From: a virus
Lineage: Duplodnaviria > Heunggongvirae > Uroviricota > Caudoviricetes
Virus record (IMG/VR): IMGVR_UViG_2630968705_000015
Strand: one strand, 5' to 3'
DNA length: 19,102 nucleotides
A program made the position numbers and the translations under genes. The notes below the pieces were generated by a model that did not search any database, was not told where the DNA came from, and saw only the letters and a list, made by a program, of their open reading frames with translations. The stretch's first letter is position 1, and each line of letters begins with the position of its first letter. This document shows, one piece after another, positions 4,091 to 19,102 of the stretch.

Positions 4091-4362
4091 GTATTCGTAT
4101 TGAAATTGGCGAACGTTATGTCGTTACCAGTGACAGCTTTCAGTTTATTCTCCACGAGAAAAAGAGAGCGGAAAGCGGTAAAAACGCCGGTCAGGAATGG
4201 CTGGCGGTGGTTGGTTATTACCCGAAATTAAGCCAGCTCGTTTCCGGCCTGATGCATCACGATATTCTGACCGGAAGCGCAAAGTCTTTTGCTGATTTAA
4301 ACGCGCAGGTTGAGCAACTCAGCAAGCGTTGTTCAGAGGCTTTTGGCTCATATGGCCGTTAA
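4087..4362 (+). CDS. Hypothetical early protein (91 aa)
   Basis: ATG at 4087 overlapping the upstream stop (ATGA), GGAG upstream. Last small ORF before A. Confidence 0.55.
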   Translation: MSIRIEIGERYVVTSDSFQFILHEKKRAESGKNAGQEWLAVVGYYPKLSQLVSGLMHHDILTGSAKSFADLNAQVEQLSKRCSEAFGSYGR

Positions 4363-6475
4363 AGCCTCCGGGCGTTTTGTCCCTCCGTCAGCATTTGCCG
4401 CAGGCACCGGTAAGACGTTTACCGGTGCTTACGCATGGAACGCGCCACGCGAGGCCGTCGGGCGCGAAAGACCCCTTACACGTGACGAGATGCGTCAGGT
4501 GCAAGGTGTTTTATCCACGATTAACCGCCTGCCTTACTTTTTGCGCTCGCTGTTTACTTCACGCTATGACTACATCCGGCGCAATAAAAGCCCGGTGCAC
4601 GGGTTTTATTTCCTCACATCCACTTTTCAGCGTCGTTTATGGCCGCGCATTGAGCGTGTGAATCAGCGCCATGAAATGAACACCGACGCGTCGTTACTGT
4701 TTCTGGCAGAGCGTGACCACTATGCGCGCCTGCCGGGAATGAATGACAAGGAGCTGAAAAAGTTTGCTGCCCGTATCTCATCGCAGCTTTTCATGATGTA
4801 TGAGGAACTCAGCGATGCCTGGGTGGATGCGCATGGCGAAAAAGAATCGCTGTTTACGGATGAGGCGCAGGCTCACCTCTATGGTCATGTTGCTGGCGCT
4901 GCACGTGCTTTCAATATTTCCCCTCTCTACTGGAAAAAATACCGTAAAGGGCAGATGACCACGAGGCAGGCATATTCTGCCATTGCCCGTCTGTTTAACG
5001 ATGAGTGGTGGACTCATCAGCTTAAAGGCCAGCGTATGCGCTGGCATGAGGCGTTACTGATTGCTGTCGGGGAGGTCAATAAAGACCGTTCTCCTTATGC
5101 CAGTAAACATGCCATTCGTGATGTGCGTGCACGCCGCCAGGCAAATCTGGAATTTCTTAAATCGTGTGATCTCGAAAACAGGGAAACCGGCGAGCGCATC
5201 GACCTTATCAGTAAGGTGATGGGCAGTATTTCTAATCCTGAAATTCGCCGGATGGAGCTGATGAACACCATTGCCGGTATTGAGCGTTATGCCGCAGCAG
5301 AGGGTGATGTGGGGATGTTTATCACGCTGACCGCGCCGTCAAAGTATCACCCGATACGTCAGGTCAGAAAAGGCGAAAGTAAAACCGTCCAGCTAAATCA
5401 CGGCTGGAACGATGAGGCATTTAATCCAAAGGATGCGCAGCGTTATCTCTGCCGTATCTGGAGCCTGATGCGCACGGCATTCAAGGATAATGATTTACAG
5501 GTCTACGGTTTGCGTGTCGTCGAGCCACACCACGACGGAACGCCGCACTGGCATATGATGCTTTTTTGTAATCCGCGCCAGCGTAACCAGATTATCGAAA
5601 TCATGCGTCGCTATGCGCTCAAAGAGGATGGCGACGAAAGAGGAGCCGCGCGAAACCGTTTTCAGGCAAAACACCTTAATCGGGGCGGTGCTGCGGGGTA
5701 TATCGCGAAATACATCTCAAAAAACATCGACGGCTATGCACTGGATGGTCAGCTCGATAACGATACCGGCAGACCTCTGAAAGATACTGCCGCGGCTGTT
5801 ACTGCATGGGCGTCAACGTGGCGCATCCCGCAATTTAAAACGGTTGGTCTGCCGACAATGGGGGCTTACCGTGAACTACGCAAATTGCCGCGCGGCGTCA
5901 GCATTGCTGATGAGTTTGACGAGCGCGTCGAGGCTGCACGCGCCGCCGCAGACAGTGGTGATTTTGCGCTGTATATCAGCGCGCAGGGTGGGGCAAATGT
6001 CCCGCGCGATTGTCAGACTGTCAGGGTCGCCCGTAGCCCGTCGGATGACGTTAACGAGTACGAGGAAGAAGTCGAGAGAGTGGTCGGCATTTACGCGCCG
6101 CATCTCGGCGCGCGTCATATTCATATCACCAGAACGACGGACTGGCGCATTGTGCCGAAAGTTCCGGTCGTTGAGCCTTTGACTTTAAAAAGCGGCATCG
6201 CCGCGCCTCGGAGTCCTGTCAATAACTGTGGAAAGCTCACTGGTGGTGATGCTTCGTTACTGGCTCCCACACCTTCTGAGCACGCCGCAGCAGTGCTTAA
6301 TCTGGTAGATGACGGTGTTATCGAATGGAATGACCCGGAGGTCTTGAAAGTGCTTAATCTGGCATTGAAAATAGAAGCATCACGTAAATGTACAAACAAA
6401 GGAGACACACGAGCAGGCATAGTTGGCGAGTCAACCGCGATTTTCAATGTACAGGATGCTGATAATCAACAATGA
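4352..6475 (+). CDS. A: Rolling-circle replication initiator (P2 A-like)
   Basis: HUH-type motif PHWHMM (about 5543-5560) and tyrosine motif GYIAKYISK (about 5697-5723), typical of RCR initiators. Start uncertain: track gives TTG 4310; first in-frame ATG is 4352, overlapping the upstream stop. Confidence 0.8.
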   Translation: MAVKASGRFVPPSAFAAGTGKTFTGAYAWNAPREAVGRERPLTRDEMRQVQGVLSTINRLPYFLRSLFTSRYDYIRRNKSPVHGFYFLTSTFQRRLWPRIERVNQRHEMNTDASLLFLAERDHYARLPGMNDKELKKFAARISSQLFMMYEELSDAWVDAHGEKESLFTDEAQAHLYGHVAGAARAFNISPLYWKKYRKGQMTTRQAYSAIARLFNDEWWTHQLKGQRMRWHEALLIAVGEVNKDRSPYASKHAIRDVRARRQANLEFLKSCDLENRETGERIDLISKVMGSISNPEIRRMELMNTIAGIERYAAAEGDVGMFITLTAPSKYHPIRQVRKGESKTVQLNHGWNDEAFNPKDAQRYLCRIWSLMRTAFKDNDLQVYGLRVVEPHHDGTPHWHMMLFCNPRQRNQIIEIMRRYALKEDGDERGAARNRFQAKHLNRGGAAGYIAKYISKNIDGYALDGQLDNDTGRPLKDTAAAVTAWASTWRIPQFKTVGLPTMGAYRELRKLPRGVSIADEFDERVEAARAAADSGDFALYISAQGGANVPRDCQTVRVARSPSDDVNEYEEEVERVVGIYAPHLGARHIHITRTTDWRIVPKVPVVEPLTLKSGIAAPRSPVNNCGKLTGGDASLLAPTPSEHAAAVLNLVDDGVIEWNDPEVLKVLNLALKIEASRKCTNKGDTRAGIVGESTAIFNVQDADNQQ

Positions 6476-6596
6476 TAGCTATTGTGACTATGCTAACCAT
6501 ATGAATCTATTGTGTGATTATGAGTAATGACTTTTTCTAATATTTGATTTTTAATGTAGTAACTTAGCTAATTTTAAAATTTGTAAAAGGATGTTT
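6476..6596 (+). promoter_or_regulatory. AT-rich intergenic region, presumed promoter of the SIR2/HerA cassette
   Basis: About 120 bp of very AT-rich DNA after the A stop, with several TTGnnn / TAnnnT hexamers (for example TTGATT 6544-6549, TAAAAT 6575-6580). No promoter could be assigned unambiguously. Confidence 0.3.
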
Positions 6597-7844
6597 ATGT
6601 CGATTTATCAAGGTGGTAACAAGTTAAATGAGGATGATTTTCGTTCTCACGTTTATTCCTTGTGTCAATTAGATAATGTTGGCGTTCTGTTAGGTGCTGG
6701 TGCTTCTGTCGGTTGTGGTGGGAAAACGATGAAAGATGTATGGAAATCGTTTAAGCAAAACTACCCTGAGCTTTTGGGAGCACTTATTGATAAATATCTT
6801 CTGGTTTCGCAAATTGATTCTGATAACAATTTGGTCAATGTTGAACTTTTGATAGATGAAGCAACTAAATTTCTTTCTGTAGCTAAAACTAGACGATGTG
6901 AAGATGAAGAGGAGGAATTCAGAAAGATATTAAGTTCATTATATAAAGAGGTTACGAAGGCTGCATTATTAACAGGAGAACAGTTTAGAGAGAAAAATCA
7001 GGGTAAAAAAGATGCGTTTAAATATCACAAAGAGTTAATTTCAAAATTAATTTCAAATAGACAGCCCGGTCAGTCGGCTCCGGCAATTTTTACAACAAAT
7101 TATGATTTGGCCTTAGAGTGGGCTGCAGAAGATTTAGGAATACAGTTGTTTAATGGTTTTTCTGGGCTACATACACGGCAGTTTTATCCCCAGAATTTTG
7201 ATTTGGCTTTCAGAAATGTAAATGCGAAGGGCGAAGCAAGATTCGGACATTATCATGCGTATCTCTATAAATTACATGGCTCACTTACGTGGTATCAAAA
7301 TGATAGCTTGACTGTTAACGAAGTTAGTGCATCTCAAGCATATGATGAATATATTAATGACATAATCAATAAAGATGACTTTTATCGCGGTCAACATTTG
7401 ATTTATCCAGGGGCGAATAAATATAGCCATACAATCGGCTTCGTTTATGGAGAGATGTTTAGACGTTTTGGGGAGTTTATTTCGAAACCTCAAACAGCGT
7501 TGTTCATAAATGGGTTTGGTTTCGGTGATTATCATATAAATAGAATAATATTAGGCGCGTTACTGAATCCATCTTTCCATGTTGTTATATATTATCCTGA
7601 ATTGAAAGAAGCAATTACCAAAGTAAGTAAGGGTGGCGGTTCGGAAGCTGAGAAAGCTATTGTTACTTTAAAAAATATGGCTTTCAATCAAGTAACTGTA
7701 GTTGGGGGAGGAAGCAAGGCATATTTTAATAGTTTCGTAGAACATCTACCATACCCTGTGCTCTTTCCACGAGATAATATTGTTGATGAGTTGGTTGAAG
7801 CAATTGCTAATCTTTCTAAAGGAGAAGGTAATGTCCCTTTTTAA
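6597..7844 (+). CDS. SIR2-like (sirtuin-family, predicted NAD+-hydrolysing) defence protein
   Basis: Motifs LLGAGAS (about 6694-6708), FTTNYD (about 7092-7106) and KLHGS (about 7273-7284) correspond to the GAGxS / TTNYD / HG signature of SIR2-like domains such as Thoeris ThsA. ATG at 6591 or 6597; 6597 has better spacing from the AAAAGG site. AT-rich. Confidence 0.8.
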   Translation: MSIYQGGNKLNEDDFRSHVYSLCQLDNVGVLLGAGASVGCGGKTMKDVWKSFKQNYPELLGALIDKYLLVSQIDSDNNLVNVELLIDEATKFLSVAKTRRCEDEEEEFRKILSSLYKEVTKAALLTGEQFREKNQGKKDAFKYHKELISKLISNRQPGQSAPAIFTTNYDLALEWAAEDLGIQLFNGFSGLHTRQFYPQNFDLAFRNVNAKGEARFGHYHAYLYKLHGSLTWYQNDSLTVNEVSASQAYDEYINDIINKDDFYRGQHLIYPGANKYSHTIGFVYGEMFRRFGEFISKPQTALFINGFGFGDYHINRIILGALLNPSFHVVIYYPELKEAITKVSKGGGSEAEKAIVTLKNMAFNQVTVVGGGSKAYFNSFVEHLPYPVLFPRDNIVDELVEAIANLSKGEGNVPF

Positions 7845-9663
7845 ACTTACTGAAATCTCGGCTATTGGATACGTTGTAGGATTAGAAGGGGAAAGAATTA
7901 GGATAAACCTGCATGAGGGGTTGCAAGGCAGATTAGCATCGCATAGAAAGGGGGTGAGCTCAGTAACGCAACCAGGAGATCTTATTGGGTTCGATGCAGG
8001 TAATATATTAGTTGTCGCAAGAGTGACAGATATGGCATTTGTTGAAGCGGATAAAGCGCATAAGGCAAATGTAGGCACATCTGATTTAGCTGATATACCT
8101 CTAAGACAAATTATCGCCTATGCAATTGGCTTTGTGAAAAGGGAGTTAAATGGTTATGTTTTTATATCAGAAGATTGGCGCTTACCTGCATTGGGTTCTT
8201 CTGCTGTTCCTTTGACTTCAGATTTTTTGAACATCATTTATAGTATTGATAAAGAAGAACTCCCAAAAGCGGTTGAATTAGGTGTGGATTCTCGAACTAA
8301 AACCGTTAAGATATTTGCAAGTGTTGATAAATTATTGTCGCGACACTTAGCCGTTCTTGGTAGTACAGGATATGGTAAATCAAATTTCAATGCTTTGTTA
8401 ACGAGGAAGGTTTCTGAAAAATACCCTAACTCAAGAATAGTTATTTTTGACATAAATGGTGAATACGCGCAAGCTTTTACAGGTATTCCAAATGTAAAGC
8501 ACACTATTCTAGGGGAATCCCCAAATGTTGATAGTTTGGAAAAAAAGCAGCAAAAGGGTGAGCTATATAGTGAAGAGTATTATTGTTATAAAAAGATACC
8601 ATATCAGGCATTAGGTTTTGCTGGGTTAATTAAATTATTAAGACCAAGTGATAAAACACAATTGCCCGCATTAAGAAATGCATTAAGTGCAATTAATCGG
8701 ACTCATTTTAAAAGCCGTAATATTTACTTGAAAAAAGATGATGGTGAAACTTTTCTTTTGTATGATGATTGTCGTGACACAAATCAAAGTAAATTGGCTG
8801 AGTGGTTGGATTTATTAAGGCGTAGACGTCTTAAAAGAACGAATGTATGGCCACCGTTTAAAAGTTTAGCGACTTTGGTTGCTGAATTTGGATGTGTAGC
8901 TGCTGACCGTTCTAATGGAAGTAAACGTGACGCGTTTGGTTTTAGTAACGTGTTGCCATTGGTAAAAATCATACAACAACTTGCAGAGGATATAAGATTT
9001 AAATCTATTGTTAATTTAAATGGAGGGGGTGAGCTAGCAGATGGTGGAACGCATTGGGATAAAGCTATGAGTGATGAAGTTGATTACTTCTTTGGTAAGG
9101 AAAAAGGACAAGAAAATGATTGGAATGTTCATATAGTTAATATGAAAAATTTGGCACAAGATCATGCTCCAATGTTACTTAGTGCATTGTTGGAGATGTT
9201 TGCTGAGATACTATTTAGACGTGGGCAGGAACGTTCGTATCCTACGGTACTTTTGTTGGAAGAAGCGCATCATTACCTGCGTGACCCTTATGCTGAAATT
9301 GACTCACAGATTAAAGCATATGAACGACTTGCTAAAGAAGGTAGGAAATTCAAATGCTCTTTAATTGTCAGTACTCAGCGACCCTCAGAGCTTTCTCCTA
9401 CTGTTTTGGCAATGTGTTCAAACTGGTTTTCGTTACGTTTGACTAATGAAAGAGATTTACAGGCTCTCAGATATGCAATGGAAAGCGGTAATGAACAAAT
9501 CTTAAAACAAATATCAGGTTTACCAAGAGGTGATGCTGTTGCATTTGGTTCTGCATTTAATTTGCCTGTAAGAATTTCAATTAATCAAGCAAGGCCAGGG
9601 CCAAAATCTTCAGATGCTGTTTTTTCTGAAGAATGGGCTAATTGTACAGAATTACGTTGTTAA
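7831..9663 (+). CDS. HerA/FtsK-like P-loop ATPase, partner of the SIR2-like protein
   Basis: Walker A GSTGYGKS (about 8359-8382), Walker B VLLLEEAHHY (about 9247-9276), STQRPSEL motif, and a roughly 175-aa N-terminal domain before the P-loop. Track start is TTG 7780; ATG 7831 follows an AAAGGAGAAGG site and overlaps the SIR2 stop by 14 nt. ATG 7783 is an alternative start. Confidence 0.8.
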   Translation: MSLFKLTEISAIGYVVGLEGERIRINLHEGLQGRLASHRKGVSSVTQPGDLIGFDAGNILVVARVTDMAFVEADKAHKANVGTSDLADIPLRQIIAYAIGFVKRELNGYVFISEDWRLPALGSSAVPLTSDFLNIIYSIDKEELPKAVELGVDSRTKTVKIFASVDKLLSRHLAVLGSTGYGKSNFNALLTRKVSEKYPNSRIVIFDINGEYAQAFTGIPNVKHTILGESPNVDSLEKKQQKGELYSEEYYCYKKIPYQALGFAGLIKLLRPSDKTQLPALRNALSAINRTHFKSRNIYLKKDDGETFLLYDDCRDTNQSKLAEWLDLLRRRRLKRTNVWPPFKSLATLVAEFGCVAADRSNGSKRDAFGFSNVLPLVKIIQQLAEDIRFKSIVNLNGGGELADGGTHWDKAMSDEVDYFFGKEKGQENDWNVHIVNMKNLAQDHAPMLLSALLEMFAEILFRRGQERSYPTVLLLEEAHHYLRDPYAEIDSQIKAYERLAKEGRKFKCSLIVSTQRPSELSPTVLAMCSNWFSLRLTNERDLQALRYAMESGNEQILKQISGLPRGDAVAFGSAFNLPVRISINQARPGPKSSDAVFSEEWANCTELRC

Positions 9664-9820
9664 TTACCTGATGTACATGGCTAGTGCAAGTTGGTAGCGC
9701 ATGTCTATATGCATTTATTTGCATGTGTTTTATTGAGTGAGCGCACAAGCTTGATGACCCGACAGGTATGTATTTAGACTGAATTTACACCTGCATTAAA
9801 ACCGCCCCACGAAGCGGGCG

Positions 9821-9839
9821 GGCGAGGCGGGGAAAGCAC
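9821..9839. other. cos cohesive-end sequence (P2-type 19-nt GC-rich site)
   Basis: GGCGAGGCGGGGAAAGCAC matches the P2 cohesive end as I recall it. Lies between the variable locus and the end of Q, as in P2. Confidence 0.65.
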
Positions 9840-9848
9840 TGCGCGCTG

Positions 9849-9953
9849 GCGGTGGTGCGGATTTTATTTTTTCAGCGTCTCAGCGCGTCGTGACGGCGCT
9901 TAGTCTGCCCGTTGAGGCGTTGGTGTGTCTGCGGGGTATTTTGTGCGGTGGTG
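9849..9953. repeat. Direct repeat GCGGTGGTG (9849-9857 and 9945-9953) in G-rich DNA flanking cos
   Basis: Read directly from the sequence. Possibly terminase-recognition elements; function inferred only. Confidence 0.3.
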
Positions 9954-9980
9954 AGCGTGTGAGGGGGTGATGACGGGGTG

Positions 9981-10003
9981 TAAAAAAGCCGCCCGCAGGC
10001 GGC
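9981..10003 (-). terminator. Rho-independent terminator after Q (minus strand)
   Basis: Minus-strand reading GCCGCC-TGCG-GGCGGC followed by TTTTTT, directly after the Q stop codon. Confidence 0.6.
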
Positions 10004-10008
10004 GATGT

Positions 10009-11043
10009 TCAGCCGTTGTCAGTGTCCAGTGAGTAGTTTTTAAATCGGATGACCTCCTGACCGAGCCAGCCGTTTATTTCGCGGATCCTGTCCTGTAACG
10101 GGATAAGCTCATTGCGGACAAAGACCTTTGCCACTTTCTCAATATCACCCAGCGACCCGACGTTCTCCGGCTTGCCCCCCATCAACTGAAAGGGGATGCG
10201 ATGCGCGTCCAGCAGGTCAGCGGCGCTGGCTTTTTTGATATTAAAAAAATCGTCCTTCGTTGCCACTTCACTGAGCGGGATAATTTTAATGCCGTCGGCT
10301 TTCCCCTGTGGGGCATAGAGAAACAGATTTTTAAAGTTATTGCGGCCTTTCGACTTAACCATGTTTTCGCGAAGCATTTCGATATCGTTGCGATCCTGCA
10401 CGGCATCGGTGACGTACATGATGTATCCGGCATGAGCGCCGTTTTCGTAATACTTGCGGCGGAACAGCGTGGCCGACTCATTCAGCCAGGCAGAGTTAAG
10501 GGCGCTGAGATATTCCGGCAGGCCGTACAGCTCCTGATTAATATCCGGCTCCAGCAGGTGAAACACGGAGCCGGGTGCGAAGGCTGTCGGCTCGTTGAAG
10601 GACGGCACCCACCAGTAAACATCCTCTTCCACACCACGGCGGGTATATTTTGCCGGTGAGGTTTCCAGTCTGATGACCTTACCGGTGGTGCTGTAACGCT
10701 TTTCCAGAAACGCATTACCGAACACCAGAAAATCCAGCACAAAGCGGCTGAAATCCTGTTGCGAAAGCCACGGATGCGGGATAAACGTTGAAGCCAGAAT
10801 ATTACGTTTGACGTAAATCGGTGAGCTGTGATGTACGGCAGCACGCAGGCTTTTTGCCAGACCGGTAAAGCTGATCGGCGGCTCATACCATCTGCCGTTA
10901 CTGATGCACTCGACGTAATCCAGAATGTCACGGCGGTCGAGTACCGGCACCGGCTCACCAAAGGTGAATGCCTCCATTTTCGGGGCGCTGGCGGTGATTG
11001 TTTTTGCCGCAGGTCGCGGTGTTTTCCCTTTTTTCTTGCTCAT
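10009..11043 (-). CDS. Q: Portal protein (P2 Q-like, 344 aa)
   Basis: ORF track. 344 aa as in P2 gpQ. Start overlaps the P stop by 1 nt. First structural gene after cos. Confidence 0.85.
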   Translation of the reverse strand: MSKKKGKTPRPAAKTITASAPKMEAFTFGEPVPVLDRRDILDYVECISNGRWYEPPISFTGLAKSLRAAVHHSSPIYVKRNILASTFIPHPWLSQQDFSRFVLDFLVFGNAFLEKRYSTTGKVIRLETSPAKYTRRGVEEDVYWWVPSFNEPTAFAPGSVFHLLEPDINQELYGLPEYLSALNSAWLNESATLFRRKYYENGAHAGYIMYVTDAVQDRNDIEMLRENMVKSKGRNNFKNLFLYAPQGKADGIKIIPLSEVATKDDFFNIKKASAADLLDAHRIPFQLMGGKPENVGSLGDIEKVAKVFVRNELIPLQDRIREINGWLGQEVIRFKNYSLDTDNG

Positions 11044-18314: not shown

Positions 18315-18744
18315 TGCCGTCACGGTACTGAAAACTAACCCCGATATGCTGCGGATATTCGTGGATAACGGGAGTATTGCCTCCACACTGGCGACGTCGC
18401 TGTCATTTGAAAAGCGTTACACGCTCAATGTCATTGTGACCGACTTTACCGGTGATTTTGACCTGCTCATCGTGCCGGTGCTGGCGTGGCTGCGGGAAAA
18501 TCAGCCCGACATCATGACCACCGACGAAGGCCAGAAAAAGGGCTTCACGTTTTATGCAGACATCAACAATGACAGCAGCTTTGATATCAGCATCAGCCTG
18601 ATGCTGACCGAGCGCACGCTGGTCAGTGAGGTGGGCGGCGCACTGCATGTGAAGAATATCCCGGAACCTCCGCCGCCGGAGCCGGTCACCCGCCCGATGG
18701 AGCTGTATATCAATGGCGAACTGGTGAGCAAGTGGGATGAATGA
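18277..18744 (+). CDS. R: Tail completion protein (P2 R-like, 155 aa)
   Basis: ORF track, ATG at 18277. 155 aa. Position after the lysis genes. Confidence 0.75.
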   Translation: MLKPDSLRRALTDAVTVLKTNPDMLRIFVDNGSIASTLATSLSFEKRYTLNVIVTDFTGDFDLLIVPVLAWLRENQPDIMTTDEGQKKGFTFYADINNDSSFDISISLMLTERTLVSEVGGALHVKNIPEPPPPEPVTRPMELYINGELVSKWDE

Positions 18745-19102
18745 GTTTAAGCGTTTTGAAGACCGGCTGACCGGACTGATTGAGTCGCTGTCACCGTCAG
18801 GGCGTCGGCGACTGAGTGCCGAACTGGCGAAACGTCTGCGGCAGAGTCAGCAGCGTCGGGTGATGGCGCAGAAAGCCCCGGACGGCACACCCTACGCGCC
18901 ACGTCAGCAGCAGAGCGTCAGAAAAAAGACCGGTCGTGTTAAGCGAAAAATGTTTGCGAAACTTATCACCAGTCGTTTTTTGCATATCCGCGCCAGCCCG
19001 GAGCAGGCATCAATGGAATTTTACGGCGGGAAGTCGCCGAAAATCGCCAGTGTGCATCAGTTCGGTCTGTCGGAAGAAACCCGTGCGTATTACCGTGAAG
19101 GA
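18737..19102 (+). CDS. S: Tail completion protein (P2 S-like), truncated by the window end
   Basis: ATG at 18737 overlapping the end of R. I translated it by hand: open frame MNEFKRFEDRLTGLIESLSP... runs to the window edge. Absent from the ORF track because it has no stop. Confidence 0.7.
   Translation, partial: MNEFKRFEDRLTGLIESLSPSGRRRLSAELAKRLRQSQQRRVMAQKAPDGTPYAPRQQQSVRKKTGRVKRKMFAKLITSRFLHIRASPEQASMEFYGGKSPKIASVHQFGLSEETRAYYREG

Follow-up and report, generated by a model that had tools for sequence, protein, structure and literature searches.

The two-gene SIR2-HerA system was reportedly first described from Escherichia coli NCTC 11129 by Gao et al. in 2020, and the E. coli SIR2-HerA, or Nezha, is said to have been the subject of work by Tang et al. 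and by Shen et al. in 2023 (both in Mol Cell). The same strain is named as the source of EcSir2-HerA, which protects against lambda, in a passage of PMC11514289 that cites Gao 2020. The accessions WP_021577683.1 and WP_021577682.1 were those expressed for the biochemistry of E. coli SIR2-HerA (PMC11472057), and PDB 8J4U has been equated with 'Nezha' (PMC13434337). Phage protection with depletion of NAD+ that requires the SIR2 active site has been described for the NCTC 11129 allele and for homologues (PMC11514289, PMC13434337, PMC11559045). According to the literature on these same proteins, 12 SIR2 subunits and a HerA hexamer (stoichiometry 12:6, PMC11559045) form a complex of ~1 MDa, whose assembly turns on the NADase and nuclease of SIR2 as well as the ATPase and helicase of HerA. 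At physiological ATP the NADase, helicase and nuclease are masked (inhibition at 0.5 mM, PMC11514289); phage replication then lowers ATP and releases this brake, so that NAD+ is hydrolysed, DNA unwound and cut, and growth of the infected cell stopped before progeny are made, an abortive infection. The ATP-gated activities and their abortive outcome are summarised in PMC13434337; according to the same source, debate continues over the natural trigger and over how much NAD+ depletion counts relative to nuclease and helicase action. The E. coli and Paenibacillus complexes indeed show ATPase, helicase and nuclease besides NADase (PMC11472057, PMC13434337), and protection might accordingly come mainly from action on phage DNA, through the SIR2-associated nuclease and the HerA helicase, with the loss of NAD+ being secondary. 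As phages are stated to escape by rebuilding NAD+ (PMC11559045; bioRxiv 10.1101/2024.02.11.579819), this is considered unlikely; if true, it would make 'NAD+-depleting system' an incomplete description.

The SIR2-HerA systems of Paenibacillus sp. 453MF (Garb et al. 2022; Liao et al. 2024, PMC11472057) and S. aureus (PMC11514289; PDB 8YHO/8YHX) belong to the same family and share its logic, in that the SIR2 NADase is switched on when HerA binds and is inhibited by ATP (PMC11472057, PMC11514289). However, EcSIR2 and EcHerA are only 28% and 23% identical to the Paenibacillus proteins (PMC11472057), EcSIR2 possesses a C-terminal extension, and stoichiometry and oligomer states differ from those in Paenibacillus and S. 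aureus (PMC11514289, PMC11472057). The E. coli Sir2-HerA types I-III (PMC13434337, 2026) are likewise two-gene sir2-herA loci acting by abortive infection, but share only ~13-22% identity with Nezha; type III uses HerA as a nickase and is a system triggered by phage SSB Gp2.5/Gp5.9, in contrast to the passive gating by ATP that is described for Nezha (PMC13434337). With regard to genomic location, Rousset et al. 2022 defined the gpA-gpQ hotspot of P2-like phages (PMC9122126), whose system 14, recorded as SIR2 with DUF87 and as 'SIR2 + HerA (Gao 2020)', has 188 occurrences (PMC9122126, Table S5B).

In the present study a window of 19,102 nt was analyzed, which differs from E. coli APEC E19025 by a single mismatch over its whole length. 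We are highly confident that the cassette in it is Nezha, the SIR2-HerA anti-phage system of E. coli, and that a P2-like prophage carries it as cargo of the gpA-cos-gpQ hotspot, the analysis having established protein identity, intact catalytic motifs, operon structure and prophage position. System, structure, mechanism and occurrence in the P2 hotspot have all been published already, and nothing in the cassette is new.

The sir2-herA cassette and its products

Two open reading frames of the same orientation (+ strand) lie within 6476-9663, a span that begins with the first base after the stop codon of gene A and comprises an AT-rich spacer of 121 nt (6476-6596) and both genes. The first, sir2 (6597-7844, +), encodes a SIR2-family NADase effector of 415 aa, and the second, herA (7831-9663, +, its stop codon ending at 9663), a HerA/FtsK-type hexameric ATPase-helicase of 610 aa. 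The genes are thus adjacent, co-oriented and overlapping by 14 nt (7831-7844), forming one operon, and their lengths agree with the original prediction of overlapping, co-oriented genes of roughly 415 and 610 aa. For both genes the mechanically called frame is longer at the 5' end. That of sir2 (6591-7844) would give 417 aa; the second ATG, at 6597, is assigned as the true start because it is spaced 5-6 nt from the Shine-Dalgarno motif AAAGGA (6585-6590) and because it reproduces the N-terminus MSIYQ of the RefSeq and PDB proteins, from which the length of 415 aa follows. In herA, where the mechanical frame begins with TTG at 7780, the start is placed at the ATG at 7831, just preceded by GGAGAAGG. 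The G+C content of the cassette segment (36%, against 47% to its left and 57% to its right) marks it as compositionally foreign.

SIR2 is identical to WP_021577683.1 of NCTC 11129 and, in 415 of 415 residues, to PDB chain 8j4u_A, and likewise to the protein in entries 8SU9, 8SUB, 8SUW, 8SXX, 8UAE and 8UAF; the PDB holds 84 chains of it in 7 entries. For the E. coli proteins matched by SIR2 and HerA, cryo-EM structures have been deposited. The SIR2 sequence is therefore that of a solved, active enzyme throughout, with the catalytic Asn168 (in TTNYD) and His227 (in KLHGS) both intact. HerA, of which the PDB holds 33 chains in 6 entries, matches chain 8j4u_M in 609 of 610 residues and differs from WP_021577682.1 by one residue, Lys301 here and Glu301 in NCTC 11129. 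Walker A (GSTGYGKS, 177-184, with Lys183) and a Walker B-like motif (LLLEEAH, 474-480) are intact. At the level of DNA, the NCTC 11129 cassette shows the same 14-nt overlap, differs at 5 of 3,325 nt and occupies the same position, between gpA and gpQ of a P2-like prophage that lies next to yegR, while the host here is APEC E19025 or a near-identical strain. The divergence from characterised members, which the original prediction had left undecided, is consequently nil (no residue in SIR2, one in HerA). PDB matches to the Paenibacillus and S. aureus systems reached E-values of just 1e-10 to 1e-31.

Profile searches led to the same result. SIR2 was matched significantly by Pfam SIR2_2 (4e-10, 40.3 bits; cut-off 24.5) and HerA by Pfam DUF87, the HerA central domain (2e-20, 74 bits; cut-off 23.2), and the PADLOC profiles PDLC02186 for SIR2 (4e-190, positions 2-408 of 412) and PDLC02185 for HerA (2e-277, positions 2-582 of 585) were matched end to end. 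The NCBIfam equivalog SIR2_antiphage scored 507.2 bits on SIR2, above its curated cut-off of 500, and these matches, together with the near-complete identity to solved proteins, uphold both the pairing of SIR2 with a HerA/FtsK-type ATPase proposed at the outset and its correspondence to the SIR2-HerA defence family of the literature. HerA_antiphage scored 710.7 bits on HerA, below the curated cut-off of 800, and for this reason RefSeq lists HerA as 'ATP-binding protein'; this score is best regarded as a matter of annotation threshold, overridden by the near-identity to the solved HerA, and the RefSeq name as an under-naming of the HerA partner.

That the two frames play no part in defence, being a chance pair or a housekeeping sirtuin beside a DNA-repair HerA, is so improbable as to be negligible. 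No point in support of it was found, and it is refuted by the PADLOC matches and by the PDB proteins of a defence system, which are matched exactly or with one substitution; the cassette moreover lies in a prophage defence hotspot. A DNA-repair HerA was rejected since the repair-type NCBIfam model NF040819 scored far lower (95.6 bits) than HerA_antiphage. Types I-III were rejected as well on account of their low identity to Nezha, and the cassette is assigned to Nezha cluster 1.

The gpA-cos-gpQ hotspot and the distribution of the cassette

To the left of the cassette lies gene A (4352-6475, +, 707 aa), the P2 replication endonuclease (PHROG 91 'nicking at origin of replication', E=0). Residues 1-675 of gpA are 97% identical to P2 gpA, whereas the last 32 aa are unrelated to the last 86 aa of the P2 protein, the C-terminal tail having been replaced. 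The prophage also has an ISEc12 insertion in its gpS-like gene, which together with the altered gpA tail may have rendered it inactive. Homology to P2 and to phage pro483 ends at 6347 and 6354 and returns at 9792 and 9788, respectively, and the variable cargo segment (6348-9791) thus begins within the 3' end of gene A and stops 29 nt short of cos. On the right the hotspot is bounded by the cohesive-end 19-mer GGCGAGGCGGGGAAAGCAC (9821-9839, +): positions 9792-9839 match the P2 record at its cosR end, and the alignment of 9821-11000 starts at P2 base 1 (cosL). Gene Q follows on the opposite strand (10009-11043, -; PHROG 68 portal protein, 7e-176) and is named 'phage portal protein' in the annotation of the matching genomes. 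With gene A on the left, cos and Q on the right, conserved flanks and variable content, the segment has the features of hotspot cargo.

Sequence identity of the flanks to P2, pro483 and further phages is 96-97%, and the flank-matching phages carry other cargo, among it DUF4238, CDT and VbhT/Fic; phage matches cover just 43% of the query 5000-11000, which corresponds to the flanks alone. In P2 itself the interval from gene A to cos is occupied by orf91, tin and old, and the placing of the cassette at the P2 tin/old position in the original prediction proved right. The role of old and tin is the same, namely prophage-borne exclusion of other phages, although their proteins are unrelated to those of the cassette and encoded on the opposite strand. 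Rousset system 14 (PMC9122126) has the same two-gene architecture in the same hotspot, but its representative HerA is a diverged allele (MSHFKLSELS... compared with MSLFKLTEIS... here), and the system is therefore present in the hotspot in more than one allelic form.

The repeat search revealed a sequence of 14 nt at the left homology break that is exactly duplicated; apart from this, flanking repeats, direct or inverted, of the kind that points to a transposon-like insertion were not found. No RNA family was found in an Rfam scan of the whole window.

Among 5,426 complete E. coli genomes the hotspot flanks occur in 2,240 and this cargo in 20, every one of which carries the allele at the same prophage position, with cassette conservation of 99% or more. 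In 50,697 deposited phage genomes the cassette was not found, either by megablast of the cassette or by tblastn of SIR2, the sole matches being to SIR2 domains with identities of 32% or less; within these collections it is therefore confined to prophages.

Expression, the K301 allele and significance

The cassette presumably has a promoter of its own in the 121-nt spacer. It points the same way as the early operon, which a lysogen keeps repressed, and its expression in this lysogen, from the spacer promoter, is therefore an inference. Terminator-like sites lie at or beyond cos and not directly 3' of herA. It could be argued that the locus is Nezha by sequence and yet silent or inactive here, either because it would lack a promoter of its own and be transcribed only by read-through from the repressed early operon or because E301K would impair assembly. 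No sigma-70 consensus site turned up in a simple scan of the spacer's + strand (6476-6596), and the cassette is oriented like gene A, while for old and tin of P2 separate transcript starts have been mapped, on the other strand; HerA, for its part, is one substitution away from the tested protein. However, both reading frames are intact with good ribosome-binding sites, Sir2-HerA loci cloned with their native promoters were active (PMC13434337), and the conservation across the 20 genomes argues against a defunct cassette. The K301 allele, furthermore, is fixed in two complete genomes that are independent of each other, and conservation is poor in the stretch around residue 301 (YLKKDDGE here, YLEDSKGT in the Rousset P2-hotspot variant). 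Taken together, a silent or inactive locus is judged quite improbable.

As the stretch also differs in the Rousset variant, E301K is probably neutral, and K301 HerA would be expected to behave like E301 HerA. Two further possibilities, that K301 and E301 HerA differ in assembly, ATP gating or phage range and that the replaced C-terminal tail of gpA travels with the cassette, are jointly given very little credence. In the latter case the exchange would have taken place inside gene A and replication of the prophage might be affected; neither, if true, would change the identity of the system.

The natural trigger of the system and the order of its activities are already under study with exactly these proteins, and the finding matters as annotation only, raising no new question. 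The P2-like prophage gives this avian-pathogenic E. coli lysogen a textbook example of an abortive-infection system that depletes NAD+, and the value of recording it lies in its bearing on the prediction of phage susceptibility, for instance in phage therapy.

Identity of the gene pair with the characterised E. coli system

The SIR2-HerA cassette consists of sir2 (6597-7844, plus strand, 415 aa) and herA (7831-9663, plus strand, 610 aa), and the decisive evidence on its identity is a search against solved structures, in which the SIR2 protein was identical at 415 of 415 residues to chain A of PDB 8J4U (also 8SU9, 8SUB, 8SUW, 8SXX, 8UAE, 8UAF) and HerA at 609 of 610 to chain M of 8J4U. The counterparts in E. 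coli NCTC11129 are WP_021577683.1 (SIR2) and WP_021577682.1 (HerA), from which the proteins encoded here differ at no and at one position, respectively; over 3,325 nt, the DNA of the two cassettes shows five differences. Exactly these two proteins were expressed as the E. coli SIR2-HerA by Liao et al. (2024; PMC11472057), and the lambda-protective EcSir2-HerA of Zhen et al. (2024; PMC11514289) was likewise taken from NCTC 11129, with credit to Gao et al. (2020); Zhang et al. (2026; PMC13434337) treat PDB 8J4U as the system called ‘Nezha’. The single replacement affects HerA codon 301 (window 8731), which is lysine here vs glutamate in the PDB entry and NCTC11129, the remaining four differences (6923, 6926, 7637, 8293) being silent or non-coding. 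As the hotspot variant shown by Rousset et al. (PMC9122126) differs in the stretch around residue 301 too, the K301 allele is probably neutral and equivalent to E301.

The original prediction of two co-oriented, overlapping genes at this place was accurate, and both ORFs lie on the plus strand. Mechanically, the sir2 ORF opens at 6591; the real start is the second ATG, at 6597, since it lies 5-6 nt past the Shine-Dalgarno motif AAAGGA and gives a protein that begins with MSIYQ, as in the RefSeq and PDB entries. The herA start is the ATG at 7831, preceded by GGAGAAGG, not an upstream TTG; both genes overlap by 14 nt. G+C content is 36% in the cassette segment vs 47% to its left and 57% to its right.

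All profile searches agreed with the predicted family: Pfam found SIR2_2 in the first protein and DUF87, the HerA central domain, in the second, PADLOC matched both end to end (SIR2 PDLC02186, 4e-190; HerA PDLC02185, 2e-277), and the SIR2 exceeded the cut-off of NCBIfam SIR2_antiphage. Both proteins keep their key motifs intact: catalytic Asn168 and His227 in SIR2, Walker A Lys183 and the Walker B motif in HerA. The PADLOC matches and the near-identity to solved structures exclude a non-defence reading. The NCBIfam equivalog HerA_antiphage (NF042943) requires 800 bits, of which HerA (7831-9663) reached 710.7, and therefore this experimentally characterised protein is labelled merely ‘ATP-binding protein’ in RefSeq; the cut-off leaves out the founding E. 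coli HerA.

Position in the P2-like prophage

The window, which shows one mismatch in 19,102 nt to E. coli APEC E19025, carries P2 genes on both sides of the cassette, namely integrase, repressor C, Cox, a B-like gene and A (replication endonuclease), then Q (portal), P, O, N and M. Homology ends within the 3' end of gene A, at 6347 for phage P2 and 6354 for phage pro483, and restarts at 9792 and 9788, respectively. The P2 cos cohesive-end 19-mer GGCGAGGCGGGGAAAGCAC is found at 9821-9839; here the window matches both termini of the P2 reference record, cosR at its end and cosL at its start, with 9821 falling on base 1. Homology limits and cos position thus place the cassette in the cos-proximal gpA-gpQ hotspot defined by Rousset et al. 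(2022; PMC9122126), whose Table S5B lists as system 14 ‘SIR2 | DUF87’, with 188 occurrences, labelled ‘SIR2 + HerA (Gao et al., 2020)’. This is the site named in the original prediction: P2 has orf91, tin and old there, although its old and tin lie on the strand opposite to gene A, whereas the cassette shares the strand of gene A. In other P2-like phages, flanks with 96-97% identity enclose different cargo, for example DUF4238, cytolethal distending toxin and VbhT/Fic.

At the window start, a 105-aa low-G+C ORF (1-318) corresponds to yegR in NCTC11129 and is followed by the P2-type integrase (773-1786), so that both strains have the prophage at one and the same attachment site on the yegS/yegR side. 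Of 5,426 complete E. coli genomes, 2,240 were found with the hotspot flanks and 20 with the cassette at no less than 99% identity, all chromosomal and all in hotspot position; none of the deposited phage genomes in the searched collection contained it.

Hotspot edges and state of the prophage

The gpA tail (6348-6475; ORF 4352-6475) belongs to the variable region. Over residues 1-675 the protein shares 97% identity with P2 gpA, whereas its final 32 aa bear no relation to the final 86 aa of P2 gpA; pro483 diverges from the same point. For APEC E19025 as well as NCTC11129, PGAP calls gene A a pseudogene (‘missing C-terminus’). Positions 6292-6305 and 6349-6362 (57 nt apart) carry the same 14 nt, AGTGCTTAATCTGG, as an exact direct repeat, the second copy right at the P2 homology break; by our own estimate, chance alone would give about 0.03 such pairs in 3.9 kb, and the repeat could be a recombination footprint. 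A repeat search found no transposon-like terminal repeats, and an Rfam scan gave no matches. Amid otherwise unrelated cargo DNA, the palindrome-like island ATGCATTTATTTGCAT (TGCAT ... TGCAT; 9709-9726) is common to P2 and pro483 and may be part of an extended cos/packaging signal or a regulatory site.

In APEC E19025 a gpS-like virion morphogenesis gene (18737-19102 and beyond; L005 21938-22401) is truncated by ISEc12, an IS21-family element starting just past the window end, and hence the prophage is probably defective, with its defence cassette intact.

Mechanism and standing of the cassette

Since the proteins are those already characterised, a new mechanism is not called for. According to PMC13434337, PMC11514289, PMC11472057 and PMC11559045, SIR2 dodecamers and HerA hexamers build a supramolecular complex, and assembly turns on the NADase and nuclease of SIR2 together with the ATPase/helicase of HerA. 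These activities are inhibited by ATP at or below physiological levels; when ATP drops upon infection they are set free, with NAD+ depletion and abortive infection as the outcome. Phages can counter such systems by rebuilding NAD+, as summarised in PMC11559045 and bioRxiv 10.1101/2024.02.11.579819. Whether protection is achieved chiefly by nuclease/helicase is a question on the family, not on this locus.

The 121-nt spacer between gene A and sir2 (6476-6596) yielded no sigma-70 consensus, yet native-promoter clones of such loci were active (PMC13434337). That this copy is silent or inactive is possible but decidedly unlikely, and the cassette is presumably expressed in the lysogen. Proteins, structures, biochemistry, anti-phage phenotype and P2-hotspot residence are all published already, and the predicted cassette is correct, ordinary and known; its practical value is that the HerA partner and the defence repertoire of the APEC strain can be better annotated.
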